A stretch of DNA of 48,809 bases from an uncultured bacterium (GTDB lineage Bacteria > Patescibacteriota > Minisyncoccia > UBA6257 > 2-01-FULL-56-20): the NCBI GenBank assembly GCA_963844965.1, contig CAWJQC010000001.1:1-48809 (forward strand), written 5' to 3'. The translations under genes were made by a program, and so were the position numbers. Below are positions 8,823 through 29,241 of this stretch, piece after piece (the first letter of the stretch is position 1; every line of letters begins with the position of its first letter). Under the pieces are notes generated by a model. The model saw nothing but the letters and a program-made list of their open reading frames with translations. It had not been told where the DNA came from and searched no databases.

Positions 8823-8850
8823 GTCCTGAGTTGTATTTTATTCCGCACGG

Positions 8851-8921
8851 AGCGGGATACCGGAATCGAACCGGCGCCATCACCTTGGCAAGGTGACGTA
8901 CTACCACTATACTAATCCCGC
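8851..8921 (-). tRNA. tRNA-Gly (anticodon GCC)
   Basis: Reverse complement GCGGGAT..GTATAGTGGTA..CACCT-TTGCCAA-AGGTG..GGTTCGATTCC..ATCCCGC-T; cloverleaf folds by hand; CCA not encoded. Confidence 0.8.
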
Positions 8922-9040: not shown

Positions 9041-9487
9041 TCAATAGTTCGGCGGCGGACCCGACGGACCGGTTATGCGCGGCGGACCGGTCGGACCCTT
9101 GAAACCGGGAGGGACCCATTTTGTTGACGTTCCTGAATTGGTTGGCGATGACGGGATCGATGTTTCGGAACCGGAAGCCGAAGAAGAGGAGTCGGTTCCT
9201 GTTTTCGTTACGCCGGCATTACCCGCTGGCGTGGTGCTCGTCGCGAATTTCGGGATCAATTGGTAGAAAGAGTTTAGTATTTGAAGACGCGCGCTTTCGG
9301 AAAGAACGAAAATTGTTATGAGACAAACCGCTACGACCAAAGAAATTGTAAGAGCGAAAGACTTCACGGAAATGGAGTCGCCAATTAATGATTGCGGAAT
9401 TTTATTTTTTTCTGCGAAAGCCACGATTTTTTCCAGGGAGGCGCTTGCCGTGGCATATATAACAAGAATAACAAAAAAACCGCCCAA
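9041..9487 (-). CDS. hypothetical membrane protein with short collagen-like C-terminus
   Basis: 148 aa, two TM segments, C-terminus GFKGPTGPPRITGPSGPP. Confidence 0.45.
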   Translation of the reverse strand: MGGFFVILVIYATASASLEKIVAFAEKNKIPQSLIGDSISVKSFALTISLVVAVCLITIFVLSESARLQILNSFYQLIPKFATSTTPAGNAGVTKTGTDSSSSASGSETSIPSSPTNSGTSTKWVPPGFKGPTGPPRITGPSGPPPNY

Positions 9488-9515
9488 GCGGTAGCTTCAC
9501 CGAACGGTATTTTTC

Positions 9516-9524
9516 TGTTATAAT
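9516..9524 (+). promoter_or_regulatory. extended -10 promoter element TGTTATAAT about 15 nt upstream of tRNA-Arg
   Basis: TGnTATAAT consensus read directly. Confidence 0.4.
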
Positions 9525-9538
9525 GACTGCGTGCTCAG

Positions 9539-9610
9539 GCCCTCGTCGTTCAACGGATAGGACGCAAGATTGCGGATCTTGTAATCGAGGTTCGATTCCT
9601 CGCGGGGGCA
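9539..9610 (+). tRNA. tRNA-Arg with genomic anticodon GCG (unusual; ACG expected)
   Basis: GCCCTCG-TC-GTTC-AACGGATA-GGAC-G-CAAGA-TTGCGGA-TCTTG-TAAT-CGAGG-TTCGATT-CCTCG-CGGGGGC-A; 7-bp acceptor (one G.U), discriminator A, C35; CCA not encoded. Confidence 0.7.
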
Positions 9611-9629
9611 CGGTGTTATTATTAACATT

Positions 9630-11935: not shown

Positions 11936-12073
11936 CTAATCCGACCCCCTTTCAAAGAGGAAATATAAGGCTTTGTGAAGAAAACTGCCCCCAGTGTACT
12001 CTAAATTAAGATATATGTCAAGTGCTATGGGCACTTGACTTTTTTAAACAGTATGTTATTATATAGGAATCTT

Positions 12074-15000
12074 ATGACTTATCAACACATTTACAAAGCC
12101 ATTTTGTCAAGGTTCACCGCTACACTATTCCTTGCGGCGCTTGCTGTGTTTTTGGGTTTTATCCCTGTTCACGCCGCGATTTACAATGCGAGCGGCCTCC
12201 TTGGACACATAGACCAAAGCGGAAATCCCATATACACGTCCGGCGGAATGAACAACGGACCGAACGCCAAGGGTTTGTATGTTCCGGCCGATACGGCACT
12301 CGATGCGGTAAATCACCGGCTTTTCGTGGTGGACACCAACAACGCCCGCGTTCTGGTTTTTTCTCTGACCTCTGCGGATGGCATTTCCTCCGTAACTCCT
12401 TCTTATGTGATAGGGCAAAGCGATTTCGTATCGGCTGACGCGGCGACCGTGTCGCAAAACCGGCTAGCGTATCCCGTAGGCCTCGCCTATGATTCCGCGA
12501 ACAGCCGGCTTTTCGTTTCCGATCAGGTTAATAACCGCGTCCTGGTGTTCAATGTCGCTCCGGGAACGATCGCGAACGGCGAGAACGCCTCTTATGTTCT
12601 TGGTCAAGGAAATTTTTCTTCTAACTCTGCCAACACGACCCAAAATGGTCTTAGTACTCCTTACGGACTTGCCTATGACGCCACAACGACGCGCCTTTTC
12701 GTTTCGGACCAGACGAACAACCGCGTTCTGGTGTTCAATGTGGCGGTTTCTTCCATGTCCAACGGAATGAACGCATCGTATGTCCTGGGGCAAGCTAATT
12801 TTACATCATCAGCCGCAGCCACTAAGAGCAGCGGCTTGAATACGCCGTATGGTGTCATGGTGGACGGCAATAGCCGCTTATTCGTCGCCGATAGCGGGAA
12901 CAACAGAGTTTTATATTATAGCGTTTCATCCATTACGAACGGCAAAGCGGCAACGAGGGTTTTGGGACAAGGAACTAGTTTTACCACATCGGCCGCGGCC
13001 ACGACACAATCTGGTCTTTCCGCTCCGCAAGGCCTGGCTTACGATTCCAAGTCCAACCGTCTTTTCGTCGCGGATGACGGCAACAACCGCATAATGGTGT
13101 TCTCCGTGGGAACGGGGAATTTCACGAGCGGGATGAATGCGTCATATGTTCTGGGACAGACTTCTTTTACTGCGGCCGCCGCCAATATTTCACAGAACGG
13201 CTTGAGCGCTCCATATGGTCTTGCCTATAGTTCCGCGAACAGCCGGCTTTTCGTCGCGGACCAAACGAACAGTCGCATTATGCTTTTTAACGCGGCTACC
13301 TCAACCATCTCTAACGGTGAAAACGCTTCCGGTTTGTTTGGCCACACGGACCAAAACGGGAATCCATTGTATACCATAGGCGAACCGAACAACGGCCCGA
13401 GCGCTCAGGGGTTTAATTATCCTTACGGAACCACGCTTGATGCCGTGAATCATCGTCTTTTTGTTTCCGATCAGACGAACAACCGCGTCCTGGTTTTTGC
13501 TTTGGATTCAAACAATAATATTTCAGCCACCACCGCCTCCTATGTTCTGGGTCAGAGCAGCTTCACTGGTTCGTCCCCGTCAACTTCACAGGGCGGTCTC
13601 AGCGCTCCACATGGTTTGGCATATGACGCGGCGAATAACCGTCTGTTCGTGTCCGATACCAGCAACAACCGCGTCCTGGTGTTCAATGTCGCTCCGGGAA
13701 CGATCGCGAACGGCGAGAACGCTTCGGTGGTTTTGGGACAATCTTCTTACACGACTTCGGATCCCGCCGTCACCCAGAACGGCCTCAATGCTCCCTATGG
13801 TCTTGTCTACGATCCGTCGAACGGCCGCCTCTTCGTAGCGGATAACAGTAACCAGCGCGTAATGGTCTTCAATACCATCGCGAACGGAGCGAACGCCGCT
13901 TTTGAGCTCGGTCAGAGCGACTTTGTGACATCCAATTCCGCCGCAAGCCAAAGCGGGCTCTCCGGCCCCGCCGACCTTGCTTATGACTCCTCAACGAGCC
14001 GCCTTTTCGTGGCCGATCAGATAAATAACCGCATCATGATTTTTAATGTTTCAACATCCACGATGGCGAACGGCAAAAATGCCGCGCACGTTTTGGGTCA
14101 GGCTGATTTCACGGCATCCAATGTCAACACAACCCAAGGGGGATTGAGCGGCCCTTACGGACTTGCGTACGACGCGACGAGAGGACAGCTCTACGTCGCG
14201 GACGTCAACAACAGCCGCATTCTCGTGTTCAACGCGATAGTTTCCGCGCTGGCCGACGGAGAGAATGCGTCAAACGTTTTGGGAACAGCGGATTTTGTCT
14301 CGGTTGGAGGCGGCACGTCGCAGAGTTCGGTCAATTCTGACAATTCGCTCGCAGATGATACCGCGAGTAACAGACTTTTTGCGGTAGACGGCCCCGATAA
14401 TCGCGTCACAGTCTTTTCATTGGTGAGGGTCAATGCTGCGTCCCTGCCCGGCGGCACGGTCGGGGCAGCTTATTCTGCGACAATCACGGCTTCGCAGTCG
14501 CAGGGAACGCTGAGCTTTGCAATCGCGAGCGGCAGTCTGCCGCCGGGACTTTCTCTGAACGCTTCTACGGGCGCGATATCGGGAGCGCCGACGGTCGCGA
14601 CAACGTCCGTCTTTGTGGTTGAGGCCGACGACGCATTCTCCACAGGCTCGTTCTTTGACCGCGCGACGTTCTCCATTACTGTTTCCGGGGGCGACACCAC
14701 TCCTCCTTCCGTCCCCACAGGACTCATGGCTACCGGAACGACCACTTCCACCATTTCCTTGTCCTGGACCGCTTCTACCGATTCCGGTGGCAGCGGACTT
14801 GCGGGATACAAGATATACAGGGACGGCACGCAGGTGGGAACCTCTACGGCTCCAAGCGCGACCTTCACCGACACCGCCCTTACAGCGTCCACGACCTACG
14901 CATATACGGTCAGTGCCTATGACAACGCCGGAAACGTTTCCGCGCAGTCATCGGCGATAAACGCCACGACCCAGTCTCTTTCCGACACGACGCCTCCCTC

Positions 15001-16621
15001 CGTACCGTCAGGACTTGCTGTTTCAACGACCACGTTGAGTTCGGTGTCGCTCACTTGGACCGCCTCTACGGACAATGTCGGTGTCACGGGATACGAGATC
15101 TACCGCAACGGCACGCAGACCGGAACTTCCACCTCGACCTCTTTCACAGATACCGGTCTTACGGCCTCAACTACATATTCCTATGCCGTCTCTGCCTATG
15201 ACGCAGCCGGCAACAACTCGGCAACCTCAACCTCTGTGAGCGCGACAACTTCGGCAGCGAGTAGCGGCGGTGACAGCGGCGGAGGTAGTGCTTCAACAAC
15301 TGTCACACTTTCTGCGATTACTGGGCCAACCGTCACGGTTGGAGACACTGCCGCCTTCACTGCAAACGCAACGGACTCTGATGCCAGCGGCACCGTTTCA
15401 TACGGCCTTACCGGCGCTCCTTCCGGTGCAACAATTGACGCATCATCTGGTGCGTTCTCGTGGAACACAACCGGAGTCACACCTGGCACATACACCTTCT
15501 CAGTGACTGCAACCGGCAGCACCGGTGGCTCTGATAGTAAGGACGTCTCAATTACGGTAAATGCGGCACCTGTGCCCGCGACGAGCACATTGAACGTTAC
15601 AGTGTTGGTTGACAATTCGCAGGGCGGCTTGGCAACCCCCTCCGACTTCACGGTCAGCGTTTATGCAAGCAATCCGAGCACATCCACCTTCCCGGGAAAC
15701 GCTTCAGGCACTACTGTGACCGTTGATGAGAATACTACCTACAGCGTGAATATTTCTTCGCTGAATGATTATTCTTCCGCTAATAACGGTAGTTGCGCTG
15801 GCACCACCGCGCCCGCCGGCAATTCAGTAAACTGTTCATTCACGGAAACATTCTTGCCCCTTATCTCACAACAGGGTTCGTCTAACCCGACCACTGATTC
15901 CATCACCGTAACCTGGACCACGGACCATCCGGCGACGAGCCGCGTGATCTACGACACCGTGTCGCATCCAACTTTGGGAGCGGCGCCGAACTACGGATAC
16001 GCCTATTCCACGGATGAGGACTCCACGCTTCTTACGAGCCACAGCGTGACTGTCTCCGGTCTTGCGGCTGGCACGACTTACTACTTCCGTGCTGTTTCCC
16101 ATGGCTCTCCCGAAACTGTAAGCGATGAATTCACCGGAACGACAACTTCGCCGGCGAGTAGCGGCGTGGGTAGTGCTACGGTCAGCGGCGGTGGCGGAGG
16201 GGGTGGAGGCGGCGGTGGTGGCGGAGGAGGAGGTGGTGGCGGAGGATATATTTCTCCTACCGAGCCAACCCAATCTCCGGCGTCAACTCAAAACGCCGCA
16301 GTGGACCCGAATGCCACACTCCGGTCTTTGCTGGAAAAGCTGCAAATCTTACTCGCACAACTGAACTCTAAATTGAAGTCGCAATTTACTCGCGATCTTA
16401 CCATAGGGTCGTCGGGAGATACCGTTCGCGTTCTTCAGACGTTCTTGAACATCAACGGTTATCCCATCGCCAGCACCGGTATCGGCTCTCCAGGCAACGA
16501 ATCCGCCTATTTCGGAGTGAAGACCGCCGCCGCTCTAGCTAAGTTCCAGGAGGTACACGGCCTTCCCCCAACCGGATACTTTGGCTCACTCACGAGGCAG
16601 ATAATAATGGGAATAAAGTAA
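12074..16621 (+). CDS. giant cell-surface protein: about 14 NHL repeats, Ig-like and Fn3 domains, 22-residue poly-Gly linker, C-terminal peptidoglycan-binding (PG_binding_1) domain. ORF track start 12035; ATG 12074 preferred because it follows a TGTTATTAT -10-like element and gives a signal peptide
   Basis: Repeated NNRVLVF(N/S) NHL motif; SLSWTASTD..GYKIYRDG Fn3; GDTVRVLQTFLNINGYPIASTG...LAKFQEVHGLPPTGYFG PG-binding. Confidence 0.7.
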   Translation: MTYQHIYKAILSRFTATLFLAALAVFLGFIPVHAAIYNASGLLGHIDQSGNPIYTSGGMNNGPNAKGLYVPADTALDAVNHRLFVVDTNNARVLVFSLTSADGISSVTPSYVIGQSDFVSADAATVSQNRLAYPVGLAYDSANSRLFVSDQVNNRVLVFNVAPGTIANGENASYVLGQGNFSSNSANTTQNGLSTPYGLAYDATTTRLFVSDQTNNRVLVFNVAVSSMSNGMNASYVLGQANFTSSAAATKSSGLNTPYGVMVDGNSRLFVADSGNNRVLYYSVSSITNGKAATRVLGQGTSFTTSAAATTQSGLSAPQGLAYDSKSNRLFVADDGNNRIMVFSVGTGNFTSGMNASYVLGQTSFTAAAANISQNGLSAPYGLAYSSANSRLFVADQTNSRIMLFNAATSTISNGENASGLFGHTDQNGNPLYTIGEPNNGPSAQGFNYPYGTTLDAVNHRLFVSDQTNNRVLVFALDSNNNISATTASYVLGQSSFTGSSPSTSQGGLSAPHGLAYDAANNRLFVSDTSNNRVLVFNVAPGTIANGENASVVLGQSSYTTSDPAVTQNGLNAPYGLVYDPSNGRLFVADNSNQRVMVFNTIANGANAAFELGQSDFVTSNSAASQSGLSGPADLAYDSSTSRLFVADQINNRIMIFNVSTSTMANGKNAAHVLGQADFTASNVNTTQGGLSGPYGLAYDATRGQLYVADVNNSRILVFNAIVSALADGENASNVLGTADFVSVGGGTSQSSVNSDNSLADDTASNRLFAVDGPDNRVTVFSLVRVNAASLPGGTVGAAYSATITASQSQGTLSFAIASGSLPPGLSLNASTGAISGAPTVATTSVFVVEADDAFSTGSFFDRATFSITVSGGDTTPPSVPTGLMATGTTTSTISLSWTASTDSGGSGLAGYKIYRDGTQVGTSTAPSATFTDTALTASTTYAYTVSAYDNAGNVSAQSSAINATTQSLSDTTPPSVPSGLAVSTTTLSSVSLTWTASTDNVGVTGYEIYRNGTQTGTSTSTSFTDTGLTASTTYSYAVSAYDAAGNNSATSTSVSATTSAASSGGDSGGGSASTTVTLSAITGPTVTVGDTAAFTANATDSDASGTVSYGLTGAPSGATIDASSGAFSWNTTGVTPGTYTFSVTATGSTGGSDSKDVSITVNAAPVPATSTLNVTVLVDNSQGGLATPSDFTVSVYASNPSTSTFPGNASGTTVTVDENTTYSVNISSLNDYSSANNGSCAGTTAPAGNSVNCSFTETFLPLISQQGSSNPTTDSITVTWTTDHPATSRVIYDTVSHPTLGAAPNYGYAYSTDEDSTLLTSHSVTVSGLAAGTTYYFRAVSHGSPETVSDEFTGTTTSPASSGVGSATVSGGGGGGGGGGGGGGGGGGGGYISPTEPTQSPASTQNAAVDPNATLRSLLEKLQILLAQLNSKLKSQFTRDLTIGSSGDTVRVLQTFLNINGYPIASTGIGSPGNESAYFGVKTAAALAKFQEVHGLPPTGYFGSLTRQIIMGIK

Positions 16622-17349: not shown

Positions 17350-18039
17350 CTATGCCCTTGCGACAGCGAGGGCGATAATTTTCTTCGCGTCGGCGGATTT
17401 CAGGGCCAGCGCGGCTTCCAAAAATGTTGCACCCGATGTCGTGACGTCATCTATCAAGATTATTTTTTTGCCGCGGAACAGTTCCGGGTTTTTGATGCCG
17501 AAGCAATTCTTGACGTTTTCACTGCGTTCGCTCAGGTTTTTCGTTTCGCTTTGCGCCTTAGTGTTCTTCGTGCGCAGGAAATTTTTTGTTTCTAATAGGA
17601 GTCCGAAATGCGCAGCGAAAATTTCTGCGATCAGCTCCGACTGGTTGAAGCCTCTCTCGCGCGAGCGCCTGCCGGAGAGGGGGATTGGCATTACGAGATA
17701 TTCCGCGATAGGAATCCGCAGATTTTCCGCGTAGCGGACGAGAAGCCGCGCGAGCGGTTCGGCAGCAGATTTTACATATTTGAATTTCAGAAGGTGGACG
17801 AGATTTTTCACTATCTCGTCGGTATAATCGGTCGCCGCGCCGAGCGCGTAAGGAAAATCCAGATGGCACATTCTTTTTCCTTCGGCAAGACGCGCGCTGC
17901 ACTTACCGCAAAAGAGGGTGTTATTGACGTTTATTTTTGTGAGGCACTCTCCGCAGATTGCCGCACCGCTTCCCATCGTTTTTCCGCAGCCGAGACAGTT
18001 AGACGGAAAAATTAAGTCAATTAGTTTATCCAAGAACAT
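17350..18039 (-). CDS. comF: ComF family protein (ComFC; double zinc-ribbon plus phosphoribosyltransferase domain)
   Basis: N-terminal CxxC...CxxC...CxxC, C-terminal KKIILIDDVTTSGATF PRTase motif. Confidence 0.8.
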   Translation of the reverse strand: MFLDKLIDLIFPSNCLGCGKTMGSGAAICGECLTKINVNNTLFCGKCSARLAEGKRMCHLDFPYALGAATDYTDEIVKNLVHLLKFKYVKSAAEPLARLLVRYAENLRIPIAEYLVMPIPLSGRRSRERGFNQSELIAEIFAAHFGLLLETKNFLRTKNTKAQSETKNLSERSENVKNCFGIKNPELFRGKKIILIDDVTTSGATFLEAALALKSADAKKIIALAVARA

Positions 18040-18376: not shown

Positions 18377-19480
18377 ATGGACACCGCGAACATCTTCAAA
18401 ACCTTCAAATTTTTCAAACAGAGCGTTTTTCCCTCGTATCTCGGTGTTGATATCGGCACGACCTCCATAAAGGTTGTGGAGGTGAAGCCGGGCAAGCAAC
18501 TGCCGGAAGTTGTGAATTACGGATTTCTTGACTCAGGCGGCCAGCTCTCGCGCGCGAACCAAGCGTTGCAGACGAGCACGCTTAAACTTTTTGAGAAAGA
18601 AGCGGCAGAACTTCTGAAGTTGTTGGTTGGAGAAATGAAGACCAAAAGTACGGATGCCTTCGCGTCGCTGCCGACCTTTTCGGTTTTTATGACCGTTCTC
18701 GATTTCCCGGAAATGAAAGCCGGCGAGATAGAAAGGTCCATGGTGTTTCAGGCGAAACAATATATCCCCTCGCCGATCTCGGAAGTTGCGCTTGATTGGA
18801 TGAAGGTCGGTGAATATAAGGACGACAAGGGATTCACGCACCAGCAAATACTTTTGATATCCGTGCCGCAGGAAAGTATCAAGAAGTATCAGACGATCTT
18901 CAGGCTTGCCGGATTGAACTTGAAGGCGCTTGAGATTGAAAGTTTGAGCCTTACGAGAATTTTTGGAGGGACCGATCTCTCGCCGGCCATTGTGGCGGAT
19001 ATCGGCAGCCGCTCCACGAACATTATTTTTCTTGACAAAGGGCAGTTGAAATTCAACAAGCAGAGCGATTTTGCCGGAGCGTCGCTCACTCAGGCCCTCT
19101 CGGAGAGTTTGGGTATAAATTCGCTTCGCGCGGAAGAGCTGAAGAAGGAACGGGGGGTCGCGGGGACCGGTCCAAACTACGAGTTATCCACAATAATGAT
19201 GCCCCTTTTGGATGCTATAATTAACGAGATAAAGAAGGCGCGCTACAGTTACGGGGAACAGTTTCCTGGAGCGGCGAAGGCCGAAAGGTTGATCATTTCC
19301 GGCGGCAGCGCCAACCTCATTGGTGTTGAGAAATATTTTGAAAGAGAGTTTGGCCTGCCGGTTATAAAGGCAAATCCGTTCGCGAAGTTTGAGTATCCGC
19401 CGGCAATTGATTCAATGGTACCGGAACTCAATCCGATAATGAGCGTAGCGCTGGGACTGACGCTAAGAGAATTCATTTGA
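18377..19480 (+). CDS. pilM: type IV pilus assembly protein PilM (actin-like ATPase fold)
   Basis: 367 aa, YLGVDIGTTSIKVVEV and DIGSRSTNIIFLDKG motifs. Confidence 0.85.
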   Translation: MDTANIFKTFKFFKQSVFPSYLGVDIGTTSIKVVEVKPGKQLPEVVNYGFLDSGGQLSRANQALQTSTLKLFEKEAAELLKLLVGEMKTKSTDAFASLPTFSVFMTVLDFPEMKAGEIERSMVFQAKQYIPSPISEVALDWMKVGEYKDDKGFTHQQILLISVPQESIKKYQTIFRLAGLNLKALEIESLSLTRIFGGTDLSPAIVADIGSRSTNIIFLDKGQLKFNKQSDFAGASLTQALSESLGINSLRAEELKKERGVAGTGPNYELSTIMMPLLDAIINEIKKARYSYGEQFPGAAKAERLIISGGSANLIGVEKYFEREFGLPVIKANPFAKFEYPPAIDSMVPELNPIMSVALGLTLREFI

Positions 19481-19578
19481 AATTTCTAATTACCAATTTC
19501 TAATTTCTAAATAAATCCCAAATTACAATTTCCAAATTGTTTAGAAATTAGGTATTAGAAATTGGAAATTTAAAGTAC
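19481..19578. repeat. AT-rich intergenic palindromic element (AATTTCTAATT...CCAATTTCTAAATAAAT...TTGTTTAGAAATTAGGTATTAGAAATTGGAAATTT)
   Basis: Homologous to the element at 20841-20968. Confidence 0.5.
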
Positions 19579-20139
19579 ATGGCTCTTCCACAAAAAGTTA
19601 TTGAGCAACTTGGGCGCGAGCCGCCGAGAACGCCTGGCTGGTCAGGACAGCTTCTTATATTTTCAAGCACCGTTTTCGTGGTTTGCCTTTTCATATATCT
19701 CGGGCTTGTTTTCGGTTACCAGTCATATCTGCAGGATGGAGTTCAGAAACTTCAGGACCAAATCCAGCTTTTCAGTCAAAAAATTCCTACGGACGAGCAG
19801 GCGAAACTGGTCAGTTTTTATTCGCAAATCGCGAATTTGCGGTCATTGATCTCCAATCGTGTCATATCTTCGCGCGCCCTTGCCTGGCTTGAGAAGAACA
19901 CGCAAGCGAATTCTTACTTGGACAAATTCGGCCTGGACACCGCCGGTGCCAAGATGACCGTTGGCGTCAAATCCAAAACGATGGCGGATGCGTTGCAACA
20001 AATCGCCATATTTGAGAACCTGCCGGAGATTAAAAGCGTTGACATAGGCGGCATAAGCTTCAGCGAAAATTTGTGGCAGTTTGACGCGACCATTGTGCTC
20101 ACGCCCGGGTATTTCAATTATGGCAGCGGCAACCAGTAG
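19579..20139 (+). CDS. pilN: PilN-like pilus assembly protein (short cytoplasmic N-terminus, single TM, periplasmic domain)
   Basis: 186 aa, TM LLIFSSTVFVVCLFIYLGLVFGY; position directly after pilM. Confidence 0.5.
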   Translation: MALPQKVIEQLGREPPRTPGWSGQLLIFSSTVFVVCLFIYLGLVFGYQSYLQDGVQKLQDQIQLFSQKIPTDEQAKLVSFYSQIANLRSLISNRVISSRALAWLEKNTQANSYLDKFGLDTAGAKMTVGVKSKTMADALQQIAIFENLPEIKSVDIGGISFSENLWQFDATIVLTPGYFNYGSGNQ

Positions 20140-20198
20140 AAAAATTAAAAATTTCCCACAGCCTTTAATTTTTTGATGTTTAATCTTCAATTTGTTTC

Positions 20199-20840
20199 AT
20201 GAAGCAGACTACAAAAAGATTCTTAAGTATGATTTTGGGTCTGGTATTTCTCCTGTCCTCTTTACTTATGTATCTTGAGCTGATTCAGCCTGCCTACAGC
20301 AACGCTCAACAAACGAAAGCGCAGAAAAACAGCCTGCAGGTTTTTTTCGACAGCGAGGAAAAAGTCGTTGAACAGGTTGAGAAGCTGGCAAGTTCTTACG
20401 AAGGGGAAGGTGAGGTGCAGCAGGCGGTTTCCGAAGTTCTTCCGACGAGGATGGACATCGCCGGGGCGATAGCCCAACTCTACGGTCTTGCGCAAAACAA
20501 CAACTTGGCGGTGAAGTCTCTCGACCTGTCCACGGCGCCAGCCCCGCTTAAGAAAAATACGAACGCTAACCCGGGAACCACCCAGCTTTCGGGCTTTGAA
20601 ACTTCTTTGCAGAAAGGTGTCGGCACCGTATCTTTTGAATTACAATTGAGTGGGAGCTACGAAGACCTGAAAAATTTCCTGTCCGCCATTGAGACCAATG
20701 TCAGGATTTTTGACGTTGGACAGATCGAGGTCCAGCCCGTACCGGTCACCGTAGGTGTGGGCAAGGCCGGCAGCGCGAACGTGCCGCAAGACCTGTTTGA
20801 CTATAATTTTTCCCTGAAGACCTATTACCAAAGCCAATAA
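20199..20840 (+). CDS. pilO: PilO-like pilus assembly protein
   Basis: 213 aa, N-terminal TM and coiled-coil region; position in pilMNO order. Confidence 0.5.
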   Translation: MKQTTKRFLSMILGLVFLLSSLLMYLELIQPAYSNAQQTKAQKNSLQVFFDSEEKVVEQVEKLASSYEGEGEVQQAVSEVLPTRMDIAGAIAQLYGLAQNNNLAVKSLDLSTAPAPLKKNTNANPGTTQLSGFETSLQKGVGTVSFELQLSGSYEDLKNFLSAIETNVRIFDVGQIEVQPVPVTVGVGKAGSANVPQDLFDYNFSLKTYYQSQ

Positions 20841-20968
20841 TAATGAAAATTTCTAATTTCTAATATCCAATTTCTAAATAAATTTTAATATCCCAAATCA
20901 CAAAATTTATAATTTTAGCCATTAAGATTTTGATATTGTTTAGAAATTAGGATTTAGAAATTGGAAAT
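20841..20968. repeat. second copy of the AT-rich intergenic palindromic element
   Basis: aatttctaatttctaatatccaatttctaaataaat...ttgtttagaaattaggatttagaaattggaaattt. Confidence 0.5.
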
Positions 20969-21268
20969 TTGATAACCATGGCCATAGTCATTGAGGAGGA
21001 AAAAAACAGAATCAGTCCAATCAGCATCGCCACTTGGCTTGTGGTGCTTATCATTATCGGCCTCGCCGCTTACTATATCTTTTTCACACAGCCGGAGCTT
21101 ATTGAAGTTGCGGCCCCGTCCAATTTCCAGAACATTGACCCATTGTCAAAAATTAATCTTAATCCCGAAGATGTGGTAAACGGTTCGGGTTTCCAGTCCC
21201 TGAAGCCCACAATAACGTTGCCGGTGCCCGGCAACGCCGGAAGGGACAACCCGTTTCTGGCGCGATAA
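20969..21268 (+). CDS. small single-TM protein inside the pil operon (possible PilP-like)
   Basis: 99 aa, TM WLVVLIIIGLAAYYIFF; no recognisable family. Confidence 0.4.
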   Translation: MITMAIVIEEEKNRISPISIATWLVVLIIIGLAAYYIFFTQPELIEVAAPSNFQNIDPLSKINLNPEDVVNGSGFQSLKPTITLPVPGNAGRDNPFLAR

Positions 21269-21337
21269 GTATTGCGAAGTGCAAGGCGCGAATCGCGAAT
21301 CGGCTTGCGCCCAGCAGTCAATAATTTACACACTCAA

Positions 21338-23029
21338 ATGTCCAACGACGAACTGTTAAAACAAATACGAAAAGCGAAACTTTTGGACGAGGATGCGGTG
21401 GCCAAGCTCAGACGCGATTCGCTCCTGTCCGGCCAATCAGTTGAAAGTTTGATTTCCAATCGCCGGCTCATTGACGACGTGAAGCTCGCCACACTCAAGA
21501 GTTCGCTCCTCAACGTTCCTTATAAGAAAGTAAACGCTGGAGCTGTTGACAGCGGTCTTTTTGGGGTAATTTCCGAAGAGACGGCCAGAACTTACGGAGT
21601 CGCGCCGATTGAAGAGAGGGGAGACATGCTTGTCGTCGGGATGCTGCAGCCGGATGACGCCAAGGCGCAGGAAGCGCTCAAGTTCATTGGAGGGCAACAC
21701 CACCTGAACCTTGGGGTTTACTTGGTCTCTTACGGCGATTGGCAGGACGTTTTGAGGAGATACTCGCCCTATCGTTCGGAGGTTGAAAGAGCCGTAAGCT
21801 CTTTGAATTTGAAACCCGGAGGGAGCGGGCAGAAAATTGTCAGTCTTGACGAGGTCGGTGTCAGTGAAGACGCGCCGATTATAAAAATCGTAGCCGATAC
21901 TCTTAAGGAGGCCGTATCGGTGAGAGCTTCTGATATCCACGTTGAGCCCCAGGAAAATTATTTGCGTATCAGGTTCAGGGTTGACGGCAACCTGCGCGAG
22001 GAAGCGGCTCTTCCCGTTGAACTTTCCCAGCCAGTGGTCTCACGGATCAAGGTTATTTCCAGTTTGAAGATCGACGAGTCGCGAATTCCGCAGGACGGTC
22101 GTTTCCGGACGAAGGTTTTTGATAAATATATTGATTTCCGCGTTTCAACTTTTCCAACGCCGCTCGGTGAAAAAGTCGCAGTGCGCGTTTTGGATCCCGC
22201 GAGCGGCCTAAAGAGTTTTGAAGAGCTCGATCTTTTGTATGGCAATTTGGACAAGGTCAAAAAAGGTTTGGACAAGCCGTATGGCATGATCTTGGTCACC
22301 GGCCCAACTGGTTCCGGCAAAACAACGACGCTTTACGCTATGCTGCAGCTCTTGAACAAGGAAAATGTGAATATCGTGAGCTTGGAGGACCCGGTGGAAT
22401 ATTTTGTTTCCGGCGTCAACCAGTCTCAGGTACGTCCGGAGATAGGTTACGATTTCGCCTCGGGATTGCGGCAAATTTTGCGCCAGGATCCCGATACCAT
22501 CATGGTCGGCGAGATCAGAGACAACGAAACCGCGGGACTCGCGATACAATCAGCATTGACCGGCCACCTCGTCCTTTCCACCCTGCACACGAACAATTCG
22601 GCGGGCGTCATACCACGGCTCATAGATATGAAAGTTGAACCGTTCCTTTTGCCGGTTTCACTGAACCTTATGTTGTCGCAAAGGTTGGTGGGTTCGCTTT
22701 GCGAGAGTTGTAAAGCGGCGGAGACCGCGTCTCCGGATGTGGAAAAATTGATTAAGAGAGCTCTGGACGAACTGCCTCCGAACATCAGTTCAAAATACGG
22801 CTCGCCGTACAAAATTTTCCACAGCAAGGGCTGCCCAAAATGCAGGGGGCGGGGCGTTGTCGGCCGCACCGCGCTTTACGAAGTGTTGGAAATGACGCCC
22901 GGGCTTGAAGAGGTCATAATGAATGGGCCGACGGCACAAAAGGTTTTGAAGGAAGCGAAAAGCCAGGGGATGGTGAGCTCTGCGGCAGGACGGCGTTCTC
23001 AAAGCCCTGGACGGCAGAGTTTCAATTGA
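21338..23029 (+). CDS. pilB: type IV pilus assembly ATPase PilB (GspE family); true C-terminus DGVLKALDGRVSIEEVIRETEEI lies in the +1 frame ending at 23060, so there is an apparent 1-nt indel near 22976-22983
   Basis: N-terminal T2SE_Nter region, Walker A LVTGPTGSGKTTT, Walker B and Asp box (DPDTIMVGEIRD), His box (GHLVLSTLHTN), CxxC...CPKCRG zinc motif; start chosen at ATG 21338 (MSNDELLKQIRKAK). Confidence 0.85.
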   Translation: MSNDELLKQIRKAKLLDEDAVAKLRRDSLLSGQSVESLISNRRLIDDVKLATLKSSLLNVPYKKVNAGAVDSGLFGVISEETARTYGVAPIEERGDMLVVGMLQPDDAKAQEALKFIGGQHHLNLGVYLVSYGDWQDVLRRYSPYRSEVERAVSSLNLKPGGSGQKIVSLDEVGVSEDAPIIKIVADTLKEAVSVRASDIHVEPQENYLRIRFRVDGNLREEAALPVELSQPVVSRIKVISSLKIDESRIPQDGRFRTKVFDKYIDFRVSTFPTPLGEKVAVRVLDPASGLKSFEELDLLYGNLDKVKKGLDKPYGMILVTGPTGSGKTTTLYAMLQLLNKENVNIVSLEDPVEYFVSGVNQSQVRPEIGYDFASGLRQILRQDPDTIMVGEIRDNETAGLAIQSALTGHLVLSTLHTNNSAGVIPRLIDMKVEPFLLPVSLNLMLSQRLVGSLCESCKAAETASPDVEKLIKRALDELPPNISSKYGSPYKIFHSKGCPKCRGRGVVGRTALYEVLEMTPGLEEVIMNGPTAQKVLKEAKSQGMVSSAAGRRSQSPGRQSFN

Positions 23030-23107
23030 AGAAGTTATCAGGGAAACGGAAGAGATATAATATGGTAAAATTAAAAATGAAAGATTAAAAATAAAATTTT
23101 TTAATCT

Positions 23108-24208
23108 TTGGTATTTGATATTTTATTTTTTATCGTGGATAACTACAAAGAAAAACTCAGGGACCTTTTGGTGACGACGGCCAGGCAAAACGCCTCAGAT
23201 TTGCATTTGGCGGTTGGGCGTCGGCCAACGTTGCGTTTGGACGGAGTTCTCGTGCCGTTGCAGAAAGAGCCGATAACGACGCCGGAGGTGGCGGAGGGGC
23301 TGATCGGCGGACTGCTTACGCCGGAGCTTAAGGAAAAATTTCTCCGGGACAAGCAAGTTGACTTCGCTTACGGCCTTGAGGACAAGGCCCGATTTCGTGT
23401 GAATGTCTTTATGCAGAGAGGGTATCTTGCTGCCGCTTTGCGTCTGATTCCCGCAAGGATAAGGACAATTGAAGAACTTGGCTTGCCGCCGATTCTGCAT
23501 GATTTCACGAGATTGTCGCAAGGATTCATTCTGGCCGTGGGTCCCGCTGGACATGGCAAATCGTCAACCCTGGCTGCGATTCTGGATGAAATTAATCACA
23601 CAAGGTCCGACCACATTATCACCATTGAAGACCCGATTGAATATTTATTCACTCAGGACAGGTGCATTGTCTCACAAAGGGAAGTGGGAAACGACACGCC
23701 CACGTTCCACTCCGCCCTGCGCACGGTTTTGCGCCAGGACCCCGACGTAATCATGGTGGGCGAGATGCGCGATGCCGTTTCAATTTCCACGGCGATGACG
23801 GCCGCGGAAACCGGCCACCTCGTCTTTTCAACGCTCCACACCAATTCCGCCGCCCAGACGGTAGATCGCATCATTGATTCTTTCCCTTCCGGCCAGCAGG
23901 GCCAGGTCATATCGCAGCTTGCGGCCACTTTGGTTGCCATTGTTTCCGAGCGGCTTCTGCCGCGTGTTTCCGGCGGACGCGTTCCCGCGATGGAAATCAT
24001 GCTCGTGAACCCGGCGATCAGAAATCTCATACGTGAGAGGAAAATTTACCAGATAGATCTTGTGATTGAAACAAGTATGCAGGAAGGAATGGTGACCCTG
24101 AACCGTTCGCTCGTTAATCTTATAAAGAACAAGGAAGTTTCGCTTGAGAACGCAGAGCTTTACTCGCTGAATCCCGCCGAACTCCGGGTGCTTTTGGAAC
24201 GAATCTAA
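23108..24208 (+). CDS. pilT: twitching-motility ATPase PilT
   Basis: Walker A AVGPAGHGKSSTLAA, DPDVIMVGEMRD, GHLVFSTLHTN; 366 aa. Confidence 0.85.
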   Translation: MVFDILFFIVDNYKEKLRDLLVTTARQNASDLHLAVGRRPTLRLDGVLVPLQKEPITTPEVAEGLIGGLLTPELKEKFLRDKQVDFAYGLEDKARFRVNVFMQRGYLAAALRLIPARIRTIEELGLPPILHDFTRLSQGFILAVGPAGHGKSSTLAAILDEINHTRSDHIITIEDPIEYLFTQDRCIVSQREVGNDTPTFHSALRTVLRQDPDVIMVGEMRDAVSISTAMTAAETGHLVFSTLHTNSAAQTVDRIIDSFPSGQQGQVISQLAATLVAIVSERLLPRVSGGRVPAMEIMLVNPAIRNLIRERKIYQIDLVIETSMQEGMVTLNRSLVNLIKNKEVSLENAELYSLNPAELRVLLERI

Positions 24209-24303
24209 TTACTCAATTATGCGATTAACGAACTGCGGATTGACGGATCGGATTCATTCGTTAATTCGTTGATGCGTTAATCCTTTAATTTCGGATTTAA
24301 ATA

Positions 24304-25524
24304 ATGAAGTTTAAATACCAAGCGAAAACAAAAAGCGGGGAGATGCAGGTTGGCTACGTGGAGGCGGGAAATCGCGACGCCGCAGCGAACATCCTCGCCG
24401 GACACGAGCTTTTCATTCTGAGCTTGGAATCGGCAGAGAAGGGGGGTTTTCTGGAGAACATCACAAGTTATTTTGGCCGCGTGAAGCGGAAGGATATGAT
24501 TATCTTCACGCGGCAGCTTGCAACGCTTCTTGAGGCGCGCCTGCCGCTGAGCACCGCCCTTAAGACCCTTGAGGGCCAGATGAAGCAGTCGGTTTTGAAA
24601 GAAGCGGTAAGACAAATTGGCGAAGACATAGACGCCGGCTTGTCTTTTTCCCAGGCGATGGAGCGCCAAGGCAAGGTTTTCCCGGCGTTTTACATTGAAA
24701 TGGTTAAGGCGGCGGAGGTTACGGGCAACATGAACGAAATTGCCGGCTTTTTGGCGGATTATGCGGAAAGGGAGGGTGAATTACTGAGCAAGGCGGCGTC
24801 GGCGATGATCTACCCGGGGATAGTGGTCGGACTTTTCCTTGTGGTTCTTTTGATCATGGTGGTTTATGTCTTCCCGCAACTTTTGCCGATCTTTCAACAA
24901 TCCAACGTGCAGCTTCCCATATACACGCAAATTCTCCTGGGTTTCGGGACCTTCCTTGCCAAGTGGTGGTTCGCTGTTCTTATAGTTCTGGCTTTTCTCG
25001 CCGCCCTGGTTTTCGATTACGCGCGTACGCCGGAAGGAGAGGCGTTGATCGACGATTTCAAAATAAAACTGCCTCTTTTAAAAAGAGTATTTATGCCGAT
25101 TACTCTGGCGAGGTTTTCCAACGCTGCCGCGCTTTTGATACACGGCGGGATTCCCATCGCCCAGACATTGGAAATTATCGGCCACATGGTGGGAAATGTT
25201 CTCTATAAGGACGTCATGCACGATGTCGCCGCGGATGTCCGCCAGGGCGAGCTTCTCTCGCAAAGCATAGGAAAATACCCGGAATACTTTCCGCCTCTCG
25301 TCACGCAAATGATCTCGGTCGGAGAAACGACCGGAAAGATAGAACAGATTTTCAGCCGCCTGTCGTTGTTCTACAGCCGCGAAGCCGATTCCGTTATGAA
25401 CAATTTGGTTGATTTGATCCAGCCGCTTATGATGGTCGTTATAGGCGTGATGGTGGGCTTTCTCTTTGCCTCAATTTTGATACCGCTTTACAGCCTGACG
25501 GCGAACATGGGAAGCGGCGGGTAA
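24304..25524 (+). CDS. pilC: type IV pilus platform protein PilC (GspF family)
   Basis: 406 aa, two T2SSF repeats, three TM segments. Confidence 0.85.
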   Translation: MKFKYQAKTKSGEMQVGYVEAGNRDAAANILAGHELFILSLESAEKGGFLENITSYFGRVKRKDMIIFTRQLATLLEARLPLSTALKTLEGQMKQSVLKEAVRQIGEDIDAGLSFSQAMERQGKVFPAFYIEMVKAAEVTGNMNEIAGFLADYAEREGELLSKAASAMIYPGIVVGLFLVVLLIMVVYVFPQLLPIFQQSNVQLPIYTQILLGFGTFLAKWWFAVLIVLAFLAALVFDYARTPEGEALIDDFKIKLPLLKRVFMPITLARFSNAAALLIHGGIPIAQTLEIIGHMVGNVLYKDVMHDVAADVRQGELLSQSIGKYPEYFPPLVTQMISVGETTGKIEQIFSRLSLFYSREADSVMNNLVDLIQPLMMVVIGVMVGFLFASILIPLYSLTANMGSGG

Positions 25525-25563
25525 GGCGGGACTCGCGCCGTTTGCGCTCTCAGCGCGTCGATA

Positions 25564-25572
25564 TGGTATAAT
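25564..25572 (+). promoter_or_regulatory. extended -10 promoter TGGTATAAT upstream of the first pilin gene
   Basis: TGnTATAAT read directly. Confidence 0.45.
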
Positions 25573-25650
25573 TTAAGGGTATGATTCAAGTGAAACCGGC
25601 TCACTCTACTCATGGCCGGAGAAAGGTCGGGAATTAAACCGAAAAAACTT

Positions 25651-26154
25651 ATGGCAATGTTAAGAACTAGGAAAGGATTCACTTTGATAGAAATATTGAC
25701 CGTGGTGGCAATTATCGCTATTTTGGCGTCCATCATATTGGTCGGTTTGTCTTCTGCCCGGACATCGGCCCGCGACGCGCGGAGAATCGCCGACTTGGAT
25801 CAGATACGGACGGCGATGGAGCTTTACTTCAATAAGGTGGGTCATTATCCGACCGATTGTTCTGCGGTGAATGCAAATAGCGTCACTTGGTCAACGATCC
25901 AGGGCGACTTGACTGGCGCTGGTATTGGCGTGACCACGGTTGCCGATGATCCGCTGGCTAATCCAGCTAGTCCGCAAACTAGCGTGCATTATGGGTATTC
26001 TCCTACGACAACCGGTGGGTATGATCTTAGTGCGGTACTGGAAGTTTCCGGCAACTCTGCTCTGAACACTTCTATAAAGGGGAATCCCCCCCCGAATGCG
26101 CCGGCTAACTGTAGTCTGAGTTGCAACGGCCAGAATTACTGCATAGGCATGTAG
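25651..26154 (+). CDS. pilA: type IV pilin (probable major pilin), prepilin leader MAMLRTRKG|FTLIE
   Basis: Class III signal peptide, G-1, F+1, E+5, hydrophobic alpha-1 helix TVVAIIAILASIILVGL; own promoter and downstream hairpin. The upstream ATG at 25612 is rejected because an in-frame stop intervenes. Confidence 0.8.
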   Translation: MAMLRTRKGFTLIEILTVVAIIAILASIILVGLSSARTSARDARRIADLDQIRTAMELYFNKVGHYPTDCSAVNANSVTWSTIQGDLTGAGIGVTTVADDPLANPASPQTSVHYGYSPTTTGGYDLSAVLEVSGNSALNTSIKGNPPPNAPANCSLSCNGQNYCIGM

Positions 26155-26207
26155 GAAAAATACGCATCAAGTCCGGTGCGTTTATCCCTGGTTTTTTTGT
26201 GTGTGTT

Positions 26208-26240
26208 CGCCGAACCTCCGATTTTAGCCGGAGGTTCGAT
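26208..26240 (+). terminator. hairpin (CGAACCTCCG-ATTTTAG-CCGGAGGTTCG) after pilin 1, possible terminator or attenuator
   Basis: 10-bp perfect stem read directly; the downstream T-tract is weak. Confidence 0.35.
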
Positions 26241-26293
26241 GTTTTCGGCGGATCATGTTTGACGCGCGCTTGCGGGCAGGTTGAACGGCGGTT

Positions 26294-26302
26294 TGCTATA
26301 AT
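26294..26302 (+). promoter_or_regulatory. extended -10 promoter TGCTATAAT upstream of the second pilin gene
   Basis: TGnTATAAT read directly. Confidence 0.45.
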
Positions 26303-26358
26303 AAAGCATATATCAAGAAAGGTCGAGCTTGGAGTTAGACACACAATCTGCGACACAA

Positions 26359-26838
26359 ATGAAGAAGAACGGTTTCACTCTGATTGAGATGCTTATCGTC
26401 GTTACCATCATCGCGCTTCTTTCGTCTGTCATATTGGTCGGTTTGCAGCCGGCGAGAACCGCCGCGCGCGACGCGAGGCGCATCGTTGACCTGAACGAGG
26501 TCAAAAACGGCTTGGAACTTTATTTCAACAAGTGCGGTTATTATCCGGGCCAAATCCAGCCGGCTTTGAACTGTGGTCCGTTCGTGCAAATTTTCACCTG
26601 GCAGGACCTGACTGCCGCGCTTACGGGAAGCAATCTTGACATTGACGCCATACCGGACGACCCGACAACAGGAGCTGATTATTTATACGCTACAGACACG
26701 AACGGGAAGCATTACATCCTCGGCGCCACGCTTGAGGATCCGAACAATCCGGTGCTTCAGACCAGCATCCACGACGATAAAATTACTTTTTCCGTTCCGT
26801 TCAGCTGTAATGCGCCGGTGTATTGCACGCACCTTTGA
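26359..26838 (+). CDS. type IV pilin 2, leader MKKNG|FTLIEMLIVV. ORF track begins at TTG 26329; ATG 26359 preferred
   Basis: Prepilin cleavage motif, hydrophobic helix, similar N-terminal domain to pilin 1 (ARDARRI..L..ELYFNK). Confidence 0.75.
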   Translation: MKKNGFTLIEMLIVVTIIALLSSVILVGLQPARTAARDARRIVDLNEVKNGLELYFNKCGYYPGQIQPALNCGPFVQIFTWQDLTAALTGSNLDIDAIPDDPTTGADYLYATDTNGKHYILGATLEDPNNPVLQTSIHDDKITFSVPFSCNAPVYCTHL

Positions 26839-26904
26839 GGAGAGTTTTCTCGTTGAAGTTTAGAACTCCGACGTTCGGCATTCTGCGTTCAGGATATTCT
26901 AAAG

Positions 26905-27774
26905 ATGTCCATTTTGCTTTTCATTTTAGGCGCGGCTTTCGGAAGTTTTATCGGTGTCGTAGCTGACAGGTATGAGCCGAATGGTTTTTTGTTCTCAGGA
27001 AAGACCCTGGGCGGCAGGTCGCATTGCAACACCTGCGGCGTTACTTTAAAGTGGTTTGAACTTGTTCCCGTTTTGAGTTTCCTCGCTCAGCGCGGCCGTT
27101 GCCGGAGCTGCGGCGCGAGGCTGGGCCTTAAATATCCCGCCGTGGAGATTTTATCCGGCTTGATTTTCGCGTTCGTTCCGATACGCCTCGCCAGCCAATT
27201 CCAAACTCTGCATCCCGCGTTTTACGTCCTCGCTCCTCTTTGGATCCTTGCCCTTCTTGTTTTGCTCATCATAACGCTCATAGACCTGCGCCTCTATATT
27301 ATTCCCGACGAGGCGAATATTTTACTGGGGATCATCGGTGTTTTGGTCGCGCTCGCGTCACTTCCCGATTTCGGGCCGGTAAGCGGTTCGTTTCTCGGAC
27401 CCTTCGCGTTGTTTTTCGGGTGGCGGAACAATATCTGGACGAATCATCTTTTCGCCGCCGCCTTTGGGGGGATTTTTTTCGCTCTCATAATACTAATAAC
27501 GCGCGGACGGGGAATGGGCATGGGAGATTTGAAATTCGCCGTTCCCTTGGGTTTTCTTTTCGGCTGGCCGGACATGCTTCTCGTGATCGGCATCGGTTTC
27601 ATCGTCGGTTCCGTTTGCGGCGTTTGGCTCATGATCAGGAAGAAAAAGGGGCTGAAGAGCCCGCTGCCTTTCGGTCCGTTTCTGTCTCTTTCCGCCGCCC
27701 TTGTGTTTTTCTTCGGATATCAGATTGTAAATTTGTATTTTGCGCTGTTTTATATCTGGCCGTTCAGGATTTAG
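26905..27774 (+). CDS. pilD: prepilin peptidase PilD (A24 family) with N-terminal CxxC..CxxC zinc domain
   Basis: 289 aa, CNTCGV...CRSCGA tetracysteine, 7-8 TM helices, conserved Asp-containing motifs (ITLIDLRLYIIPDE). Confidence 0.85.
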   Translation: MSILLFILGAAFGSFIGVVADRYEPNGFLFSGKTLGGRSHCNTCGVTLKWFELVPVLSFLAQRGRCRSCGARLGLKYPAVEILSGLIFAFVPIRLASQFQTLHPAFYVLAPLWILALLVLLIITLIDLRLYIIPDEANILLGIIGVLVALASLPDFGPVSGSFLGPFALFFGWRNNIWTNHLFAAAFGGIFFALIILITRGRGMGMGDLKFAVPLGFLFGWPDMLLVIGIGFIVGSVCGVWLMIRKKKGLKSPLPFGPFLSLSAALVFFFGYQIVNLYFALFYIWPFRI

Positions 27775-27783
27775 AATATATAT

Positions 27784-28449
27784 ATGCCCAAGAGGAGAAC
27801 TTCCGGACCTATCTCTGCGCCGGAACAAGAAGTCCGCGGCTTACGGCGCTCAAGGCGCGCCTCTCATTCGGCGCGGGGGTTTACTCTCATTGAACTTTTG
27901 GTTGTCATCGCCGTGACCGTTCTCCTCTCAACCTATATCATCAGCTATCAGAGGACGGGCCAGCGGCAGATTCTTCTCTACGTTGAGAGTCAAAAGATAG
28001 CGAGTTTGATCTTGAAGGCGAAATCGTTGGCGATAGAATCGTTCGTTGACGTGAGTCAGGGCAATTGCGGTTATGGCTTGAGGGTGGATTACAGCGGAAA
28101 AAGTTACGGCATATTTTACTACGCGACTTCCACCACCGACAATGAGTCAAAGTATATCCAATGCCAAGAAATCAAAAGGAGCGGCAGCTTGGCGCCGGGC
28201 CGCATAGTCCCTTTCTCGGATACGACACAGCTTAATTCCGAACTTGTTTTTTGGACACCCCCGCCCGGGAACGCCACGCCGCCACTTTACTACGTTCTTT
28301 TCGTACCGCCGGATCCCGAAACACTGCTTGTCGACCAGAGTGGTGACATAGTTTCAGGTCCAGGTTCCGAGGCCGTCTATCTTGAAACCAAGGACGGTCT
28401 GGCGAGTACCACGGTCGTCGTTAATCCAGCCGGTCAGGTGAATTTCTAA
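27784..28449 (+). CDS. minor pilin / pseudopilin with long N-terminal leader (..ARG|FTLIELLVVIAV)
   Basis: Prepilin-type N-terminal cleavage/methylation motif at residues about 30-45. Confidence 0.65.
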   Translation: MPKRRTSGPISAPEQEVRGLRRSRRASHSARGFTLIELLVVIAVTVLLSTYIISYQRTGQRQILLYVESQKIASLILKAKSLAIESFVDVSQGNCGYGLRVDYSGKSYGIFYYATSTTDNESKYIQCQEIKRSGSLAPGRIVPFSDTTQLNSELVFWTPPPGNATPPLYYVLFVPPDPETLLVDQSGDIVSGPGSEAVYLETKDGLASTTVVVNPAGQVNF

Positions 28450-28560
28450 ATTCAGAAAGTGGAAAATAGTAAATAGAAAATAGAAAAATCAATGCCAGCT
28501 TTAAATAGGATGAGAAGTAAAAGAAAAAAATCACCACCCTCTACTTTCTACTTTCTCCGG
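28441..28560. repeat. AT-rich palindromic intergenic element related to 8925-9040 (AAATAGAAAATAGAAAA ... CTCTACTTTCTACTTTCTCC)
   Basis: Shared TAGAAAGT/ACTTTCTA and ATAGAAAATAGAA motifs. Confidence 0.4.
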
Positions 28561-28639
28561 TGGCCGAGCACAAGGGGCAGACCCCGTATGACAACTGCGG
28601 TAGCGGCAACTCAATGCCGCAAGGAAATTAAGAAGTAAT

Positions 28640-29230
28640 ATGTTTATGCGGCATATTTTTCGCACAGTAGCAGATTTCTTGCGTTGCCGTAGGCATTGCA
28701 ACCGCAGTTGCTCTACGGGGCAGATTATAATTGAGGCCATAGTCGCTTTATCGGCTCTGACCATCTGCTTCGTGGGGATTTTTGGGCTTATTTCAACTTC
28801 GCTCCACTACAACCGTTTCATTGCCAACGACTACACGGGCACCTACCTCGCGGCCGAGGGAATAGAGGTGGTCAAGAACCTTTTGGATTCCAATGTCATA
28901 TCCGGACGCGAGTGGGGCTGCGGATTTATGAACGGCTCTTATGAGTTGACTTATGATACGCAGTTCAAAAGTACGGTTTGTTCGCAATCCGTACTTGATC
29001 CCAATCAATCTAGAAGTTTATACATGGATTCAGGTAGCCACTTATACAACTACAATGTCGCCGCGGCCGGCACCGCTTTTACGCGCGTCGTGACGATCGA
29101 GGTTCTCGAAAGTGACTCGAACGGGAATCCTCAGGAAATGCAGGTCAATTCCGTTGTTTCCTGGAATCAGGGGGCGGGCAAGCAAAGCGTCAATTTGGAA
29201 GACAGATTTTTCAATTGGCACGCGCAGTAA
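28640..29230 (+). CDS. pilin-like protein (..STG|QIIIEAIVALSALTICFVGIFGLIS), Cys-containing C-terminal domain
   Basis: Gly followed by hydrophobic helix with Glu at +5; four Cys in the globular part. Confidence 0.5.
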   Translation: MFMRHIFRTVADFLRCRRHCNRSCSTGQIIIEAIVALSALTICFVGIFGLISTSLHYNRFIANDYTGTYLAAEGIEVVKNLLDSNVISGREWGCGFMNGSYELTYDTQFKSTVCSQSVLDPNQSRSLYMDSGSHLYNYNVAAAGTAFTRVVTIEVLESDSNGNPQEMQVNSVVSWNQGAGKQSVNLEDRFFNWHAQ

Positions 29231-29241
29231 ATAAATAAAAA

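Follow-up and report, generated by a model that had tools for sequence, protein, structure and literature searches.

How does a bacterium read the arginine codons of the CGN box when its tRNA-Arg gene carries a G, and not an A, at the wobble position? This question is raised by a single tRNA gene in a stretch of 48,809 nt from an uncultured bacterium; the whole stretch was analysed and is called the window below. The window tRNA and the canonical bacterial tRNA-Arg(ACG) are of the same isotype, share A20, C35 and G36, and both read CGU and CGC. They differ at position 34, where the window gene has G in place of A, which leaves TadA nothing to deaminate and provides no reading of CGA. The original prediction placed a tRNA-Arg gene with the genomic anticodon GCG at 9516-9610, with an extended -10 element just upstream of the tRNA, and proposed that the lineage either lacks TadA or has reassigned its arginine decoding. 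The features of the locus are as follows.

9539..9610, plus strand: tRNA-Arg gene with anticodon GCG, 72 nt to the discriminator A (ARAGORN, Rfam RF00005)
9516..9524, plus strand: extended -10 promoter-like element TGTTATAAT, with TATAAT at 9519-9524 (sequence, promoter scan)
9496..9501, plus strand: -35-like hexamer TTCACC, with a 17-nt spacer to the -10 (consensus match only)

ARAGORN, run on the whole window, called a tRNA-Arg with anticodon gcg at 9539-9611 on the plus strand, the same isotype and the same anticodon as predicted. The Rfam tRNA model RF00005 aligned to 9539-9610 over model positions 1-71 of 71, with a score of 58.4 bits (gathering score 29); no non-canonical pair was flagged, and the E-value, calculated over the complete window, was 3.6e-10. 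Of the predicted span, the end at 9610 stands, whereas the start at 9516 belongs to the promoter-like element and the tRNA itself begins at 9539.

The covariance-model alignment and our own parse agree with the regular cloverleaf that had been folded by hand, including U33, C35 and the discriminator A. The acceptor stem has 7 bp, from G1-C71 to G7-C65 (linear numbering) with one U-G pair at 5:68; the D stem has 4 bp, and the anticodon and T stems have 5 bp each. The anticodon loop reads UUGCGGA (U32, U33, G34, C35, G36, G37, A38), and the predicted G34 is the G at window position 9572, followed by C35 at 9573 and G36 at 9574. The anticodon loop of the E. coli tRNA-Arg(ACG) is CUACGAA, with C32 and A37 where the window loop has U32 and G37. 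The variable loop is 4 nt long, the discriminator A is at 9610, and CCA is absent from the gene, the bases after 9610 being CGG. Recognition by ArgRS relies on an anticodon of the form NCG or YCU, with C35, and on A20 in the D loop. The D loop of the window tRNA, AACGGAUA, puts an A at position 20, and together with G34-C35-G36 this gives the gene the features predicted for an arginine isotype; with G at position 34, it does not have the A34 of a tRNA-Arg(ACG) that is a TadA substrate. The cloverleaf's anticodon arm was missing from the thermodynamic minimum-free-energy fold (z = -2.25), and the structure described here was taken from the covariance-model alignment and from covariation, not from that fold.

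The window holds three tRNA genes according to ARAGORN, and the other two score higher with Rfam (69.2 and 66.6 bits) than the 58.4 bits of the tRNA-Arg(GCG), which would fit a pseudogene or a mis-call; the score is nevertheless twice the gathering threshold, and all stems are intact. Further evidence on this point came from homologues. We scanned genomes, one per species, with a pattern derived from the window tRNA in which the D, anticodon (UUGCGGA) and T loops were fixed and the stems were left free; conservation of the loops among the matches is therefore given by construction and is no evidence, and the matches are a non-random sample. The pattern matched in at least 120 genome contigs, and all 120 matches listed were called tRNA-Arg(GCG) by ARAGORN. 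Across the 111 distinct homologues among the matches listed, standard pairs occupy 2324 of 2331 stem pair cells (99.7%). The acceptor, anticodon and T stems show compensatory changes, with three to six pair types at most of the positions that the pattern left free (for example, CG, TA, AT and GC at 3:69; AT, TA and CG at 31:39; and GC, CG, AT and TA at 48:64). The fold is thus under selection, and the tRNA-Arg(GCG) is therefore no pseudogene. Because of this retention of the fold through compensatory changes in at least 120 homologues, together with the Rfam E-value, the call is not a chance one either. We consider a pseudogene or mis-call vanishingly improbable, and the gene is confirmed as genuine.

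The record titles of the contigs indicate where this tRNA resides. Among the 120 matches listed, 97 contigs are named as Patescibacteria lineages, including Paceibacterota, Saccharibacteria, and Jorgensen-, Taylor-, Nomura-, Kaiser-, Wolfe-, Adler-, Colwell-, Magasanik-, Falkow-, Uhr-, Kerfeld-, Yanofsky-, Lipton- and Lloydbacteria; 14 have no phylum name, and nine, all third-party assemblies, are labelled “uncultured Gammaproteobacteria”. The closest copies among the matches listed are those of a Paceibacterota contig (L089, 72/73 identical) and a Jorgensenbacteria contig (L100, 71/73 identical). The nine contigs labelled as Gammaproteobacteria (L036, L037, L045, L053, L057, L069, L093, L097 and L102) carry the tRNA-Arg(GCG) of the type seen in the Candidate Phyla Radiation (CPR), and the copy on L053 is identical to that on L060, an unclassified “bacterium” MAG; the labels on these nine contigs may be wrong.

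The protein-coding genes of the window were used to place its host. A LigA 100% identical to that of the window is encoded on a public contig of exactly 48,809 bp, so that the window corresponds to a complete contig. In a database search, all named close homologues of the window LigA (66-79% identity) were from Paceibacterota, Parcubacteria, Liptonbacteria, Wolfebacteria, Minisyncoccia or Patescibacteria. Among the contigs fetched by the tRNA pattern, BLAST matched the window to a Liptonbacteria contig (L029) that also bears a tRNA-Arg(GCG): PilB was 70% identical at the nucleotide level along 1.1 kb, PilM 65-68% identical and the tRNA-Gly(GCC) 98.6% identical. Because the LigA homologues and the matches to this contig (PilB, PilM, tRNA-Gly and tRNA-Arg) point there, the host is, judging by its gene sequences, a Paceibacterota/Parcubacteria member of the CPR. 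This assignment fits the predicted lineage that does not use ACG and TadA, which is a CPR trait: CPR bacteria appear to be without tRNA-Arg(ACG) (Shulgina & Eddy 2021, eLife, PMC8629427).

We next considered how the arginine codons are used in the window, on the basis of the 13,726 codons of 43 ORFs that do not overlap. The commonest of the 553 arginine codons is CGC (151) and the rarest is CGA (40, or 7%), with CGT at 78, CGG at 103, AGA at 84 and AGG at 97. CGU and CGC together account for 229 of the 553 (41%), which is the share that the GCG tRNA would serve; this usage, in which CGA and CGG also occur, fits the decoding described for the CPR. The rarity of CGA would also be in line with an altered arginine decoding, in which CGA and CGG do not encode arginine or CGA is unassigned, and some CPR clades, such as Absconditabacteria, have indeed reassigned CGA/CGG (PMC8629427). 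However, CGA makes up 10.8% of the CGN codons in the window, and since this lies within the range of the A-ending codons in the window’s other four-codon boxes (4-23%), CGA is not avoided. Alignments argue in the same direction. In LigA, compared with 60 homologues, 18 of 28 CGC/CGT codons lie on columns with 80% Arg or more, the only CGA codon lies on a column with 95% Arg, and two CGG codons lie on columns with 100% Arg. The CGA columns of the sigma factor, PilB and PilT are as rich in Arg as those of the other arginine codons, and those of PilB and PilT are mostly Arg. Trp was never seen at the CGN columns checked in these four proteins, of which only five are CGA columns. The predicted option of a reassigned arginine decoding was thus not borne out, given that both CGA and CGG occur and that most of their aligned columns hold Arg, and we hold it to be highly unlikely. 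The same alignments offer indirect support for the arginylation of the tRNA-Arg(GCG), whose CGC and CGU codons align with conserved Arg, as would be expected if it is charged with arginine. Since CGA and CGG are used as arginine codons in the window, decoders for them must exist.

Which tRNAs accompany the GCG isoacceptor? The window itself, with only three tRNA genes in 48.8 kb, has no UCG, CCG or ACG tRNA-Arg. Being about 5% of a typical CPR genome, it leaves room for a genome that also has a tRNA-Arg(ACG) and TadA, in which the GCG tRNA adds capacity for the abundant CGC, the commonest arginine codon of the window. The related loci speak against such a supplementary role. Among 262 tRNAs in the window and the 120 listed loci (~900 kb), ACG was found 0 times, and the arginine anticodons were GCG (121), CCG (9), TCT (11) and CCT (1); the published absence of the ACG gene, moreover, appears to extend across the CPR (PMC8629427). 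The tRNA-Arg(CCG) is often adjacent to the GCG gene (nine copies in the related loci listed). TadA was likewise not detected: the H/C-A-E...PCxxC motif was absent from the window and the 120 loci (~850 kb from 120 different genomes), tblastn with E. coli TadA gave no match below E=0.4 in the window and the 120 loci, and no deaminase family was found in 40 window ORFs (Pfam/NCBIfam); these negatives are weak evidence, given how small a share of the host genome the window covers (about 5%). In the literature, we found no explicit tadA census in the CPR beyond the statements in PMC8629427, and it is from these that we infer a host genome without tRNA-Arg(ACG) and TadA; a 2026 paper in NAR about anticodon stems of 4 bp makes no reference to GCG, TadA or the CPR.

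Two tRNAs in the related loci merit separate mention. The tRNA-Arg(CCG) at 2628-2700 of L098 combines a GCG-type body with the loop UUCCGGA, in place of the CUCCGAA usual for the CCG type in the CPR, and its sequence suggests a recent switch of the anticodon from G34 to C34 after duplication. On L084, ARAGORN reported a “tRNA-Stop (tta)”, which on inspection is a tRNA-Lys(UUU) whose loop had been mis-registered.

To look for the UCG isoacceptor, we scanned metagenomes for the D arm of the window tRNA combined with a UCG anticodon, and the figures given here refer to the matches listed. Among these, the UCG copies most similar to the window tRNA are on contigs with one to four tRNAs. Several of these contigs have protein-coding genes in common with Patescibacteria loci: L237 with L095 (68-80% amino-acid identity across several kb; L237 also has a match to the window that is PilT-like), L148 and L159 with L077, L187 with L010, and L190 with L055. 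A predicted tRNA-Arg(UCG) partner of GCG is present in relatives, on Patescibacteria-like contigs. ACG tRNAs, among the metagenome matches listed, were confined to dense arrays, with 6-33 tRNAs in 3.5-14 kb, and did not occur on Patescibacteria-like contigs, which further weakens the case for a supplementary role beside an ACG tRNA; overall, we regard that explanation as unlikely.

The array contigs (L141, L153, L158, L170, L178, L209, L210, L213, L228 and L230) are mostly from freshwater and groundwater metagenomes, and they hold a tRNA-Arg(UCG) whose D arm is that of the CPR tRNAs, together with a tRNA-Arg(ACG). These dense arrays look like phage tRNA arrays and not like CPR chromosomes.

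A D arm similar to that of the window tRNA in phage-like arrays would agree with delivery of the tRNA-Arg(GCG) by a phage or another mobile element. The surroundings of the gene, however, point elsewhere. The window encodes an NAD-dependent LigA, a ComFC-like protein, an ECF-type sigma factor and an ABC-2 exporter, along with many ORFs without a family match, and two of its features are listed here.

17350-18039, minus strand: ComFC-like gene (double zinc ribbon and phosphoribosyltransferase), directly upstream of the pilus cluster
18377-29841, plus strand: complete type IV pilus cluster, with PilM, PilO-like protein, PilB, PilT-like ATPase, PilC, prepilins and prepilin peptidase

The prepilins of the cluster number four or five and have the N-methylation motif, and a pilus/competence gene set of this kind is widespread in CPR genomes. 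The tRNA-Arg(GCG) is a single gene amid housekeeping, pilus and ABC-transporter genes, and no integrase or phage-type gene was found among the scanned ORFs, many of which have no family match. Near-identical copies occur in more than 100 CPR genomes, and seven loci (L007, L015, L029, L088, L105, L109 and L116) have, like the window, a tRNA-Gly(GCC) no more than ~1 kb away from the GCG tRNA. A mobile origin is thus very improbable.

In the window, the tRNA-Gly(GCC) (8849-8921, minus strand) and the tRNA-Arg(GCG) (9539-9610, plus strand) are divergent and 617 bp apart, and between them lies an ORF of 148 aa (9041-9487, minus strand) without family matches. Taken across the seven loci, the pairing of the two tRNA genes is partly conserved in Paceibacterota. 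Elsewhere in the window, two plus-strand ORFs are very large. The first (12035-16621, 1528 aa) contains NHL repeats, fn3 and He_PIG Ig domains and, at its C-terminus, a peptidoglycan-binding domain; the second (34958-39430, 1490 aa), downstream of the pilus cluster, has zero Pfam matches and adjoins a BACON-like protein of 693 aa and a Laminin_G_3 protein. Both may be surface or host-attachment proteins. A 120-aa “23S rRNA-intervening sequence protein” (PF05635, E = 5e-23) is encoded at 867-1229 on the plus strand, where it stands alone, with no rRNA gene in the window.

Our preferred reading, which we consider very likely, is that this is a functional, vertically inherited host tRNA-Arg(GCG) of Paceibacterota, belonging to an inosine-free CGN set of GCG, UCG and CCG in place of the conversion of ACG to ICG by TadA. 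One could go further and suppose that the host is also without the UCG isoacceptor and reads the 7% of CGA codons through a modified G34, or through a U32/G37 loop that relaxes wobble. Nothing observed suggests so, and we give this idea very little credence; if true, it would be a way of decoding the CGN box that is new for bacteria.

The upstream region offers a candidate for the expression of the gene. The predicted extended -10 was recovered as TGTTATAAT at 9516-9524, and 14 nt separate its end from the first tRNA base at 9539. Together with the -35-like hexamer, it forms the arrangement TTCACC-17-TATAAT, which has 10 of 12 matches plus the TG in a promoter scan, and which is predicted from its sequence to act as the promoter of the tRNA-Arg(GCG). 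The position of the promoter is not conserved: a TATAAT-like hexamer (at least 5/6) occurs within 30 nt upstream in only 31 of 118 homologues, at scattered distances. Only one hairpin in the tRNA region resembles a terminator. It is formed by ACCGCTTGGGCGGT, with a T run behind it (9479-9492, minus strand), and sits directly upstream of the start of the ORF at 9041-9487, and there is no minus-strand gene before the hairpin for it to terminate. Either the start of this ORF is mis-called, or the hairpin is no terminator.

Under the reading of an inosine-free set, the tRNA-Arg(GCG) would probably be transcribed from its own sigma-70-type promoter, TTCACC-17-TGnTATAAT, and RNase P would trim a short 5' leader. 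CCA would be added after transcription, because none is encoded. ArgRS would then charge the tRNA through A20, C35 and G36. With G34 presumably unmodified and position 37 probably m1G, G34 would read CGC through a Watson-Crick pair and CGU through a G-U wobble pair, and CGA and CGG would be left to a tRNA-Arg(UCG) and a tRNA-Arg(CCG) encoded elsewhere in the genome.

How does this set compare with known systems? Archaea read the CGN box with G34, U34 and C34 tRNA-Arg and do so without wobble inosine. The window tRNA is like the archaeal tRNA-Arg(GCG) in this G34/U34/C34 reading, but its body is bacterial, as are the NAD-dependent LigA and the type IV pilus proteins PilB, PilC and PilM encoded with it. 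Within Bacteria, the tadA-less Mycoplasmas (the Pneumoniae group and M. pulmonis) have a GCG+UCG set (Yokobori et al. 2013, NAR, PMC3711424), likewise a G34 tRNA-Arg with a UCG isoacceptor that replaces ACG/ICG. The Mollicutes GCG is attributed to a recent A34-to-G34 mutation that the ACG tRNA underwent in the course of genome reduction, and there is no tRNA-Arg(CCG) (PMC3711424), whereas the CPR trait is phylum-wide and the CPR has a tRNA-Arg(CCG). The closest counterpart is the CPR system itself, in which tRNA-Arg(GCG) serves CGU/CGC, and UCG and CCG serve CGA/CGG (PMC8629427). The window tRNA has the same anticodon, lineage and expected decoding role, and it is 72/73 identical to the L089 copy (among the matches listed); we found no difference in sequence, gene context or codon environment, and the window gene is one more member of this group.

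The tRNA-Arg(GCG) is therefore ordinary for its host, a published lineage trait that is already known, and it has little significance beyond correct annotation. A G34 tRNA-Arg with a body of the window type can serve as a lineage marker, indicating the Patescibacteria origin of an unlabelled contig. The window gene is also an example of the non-universality of wobble inosine in Bacteria, a matter relevant to the time at which TadA arose. The use as a marker and the non-universality are both in the literature already (PMC8629427, with Rafels-Ybern et al. 2019 as cited therein).
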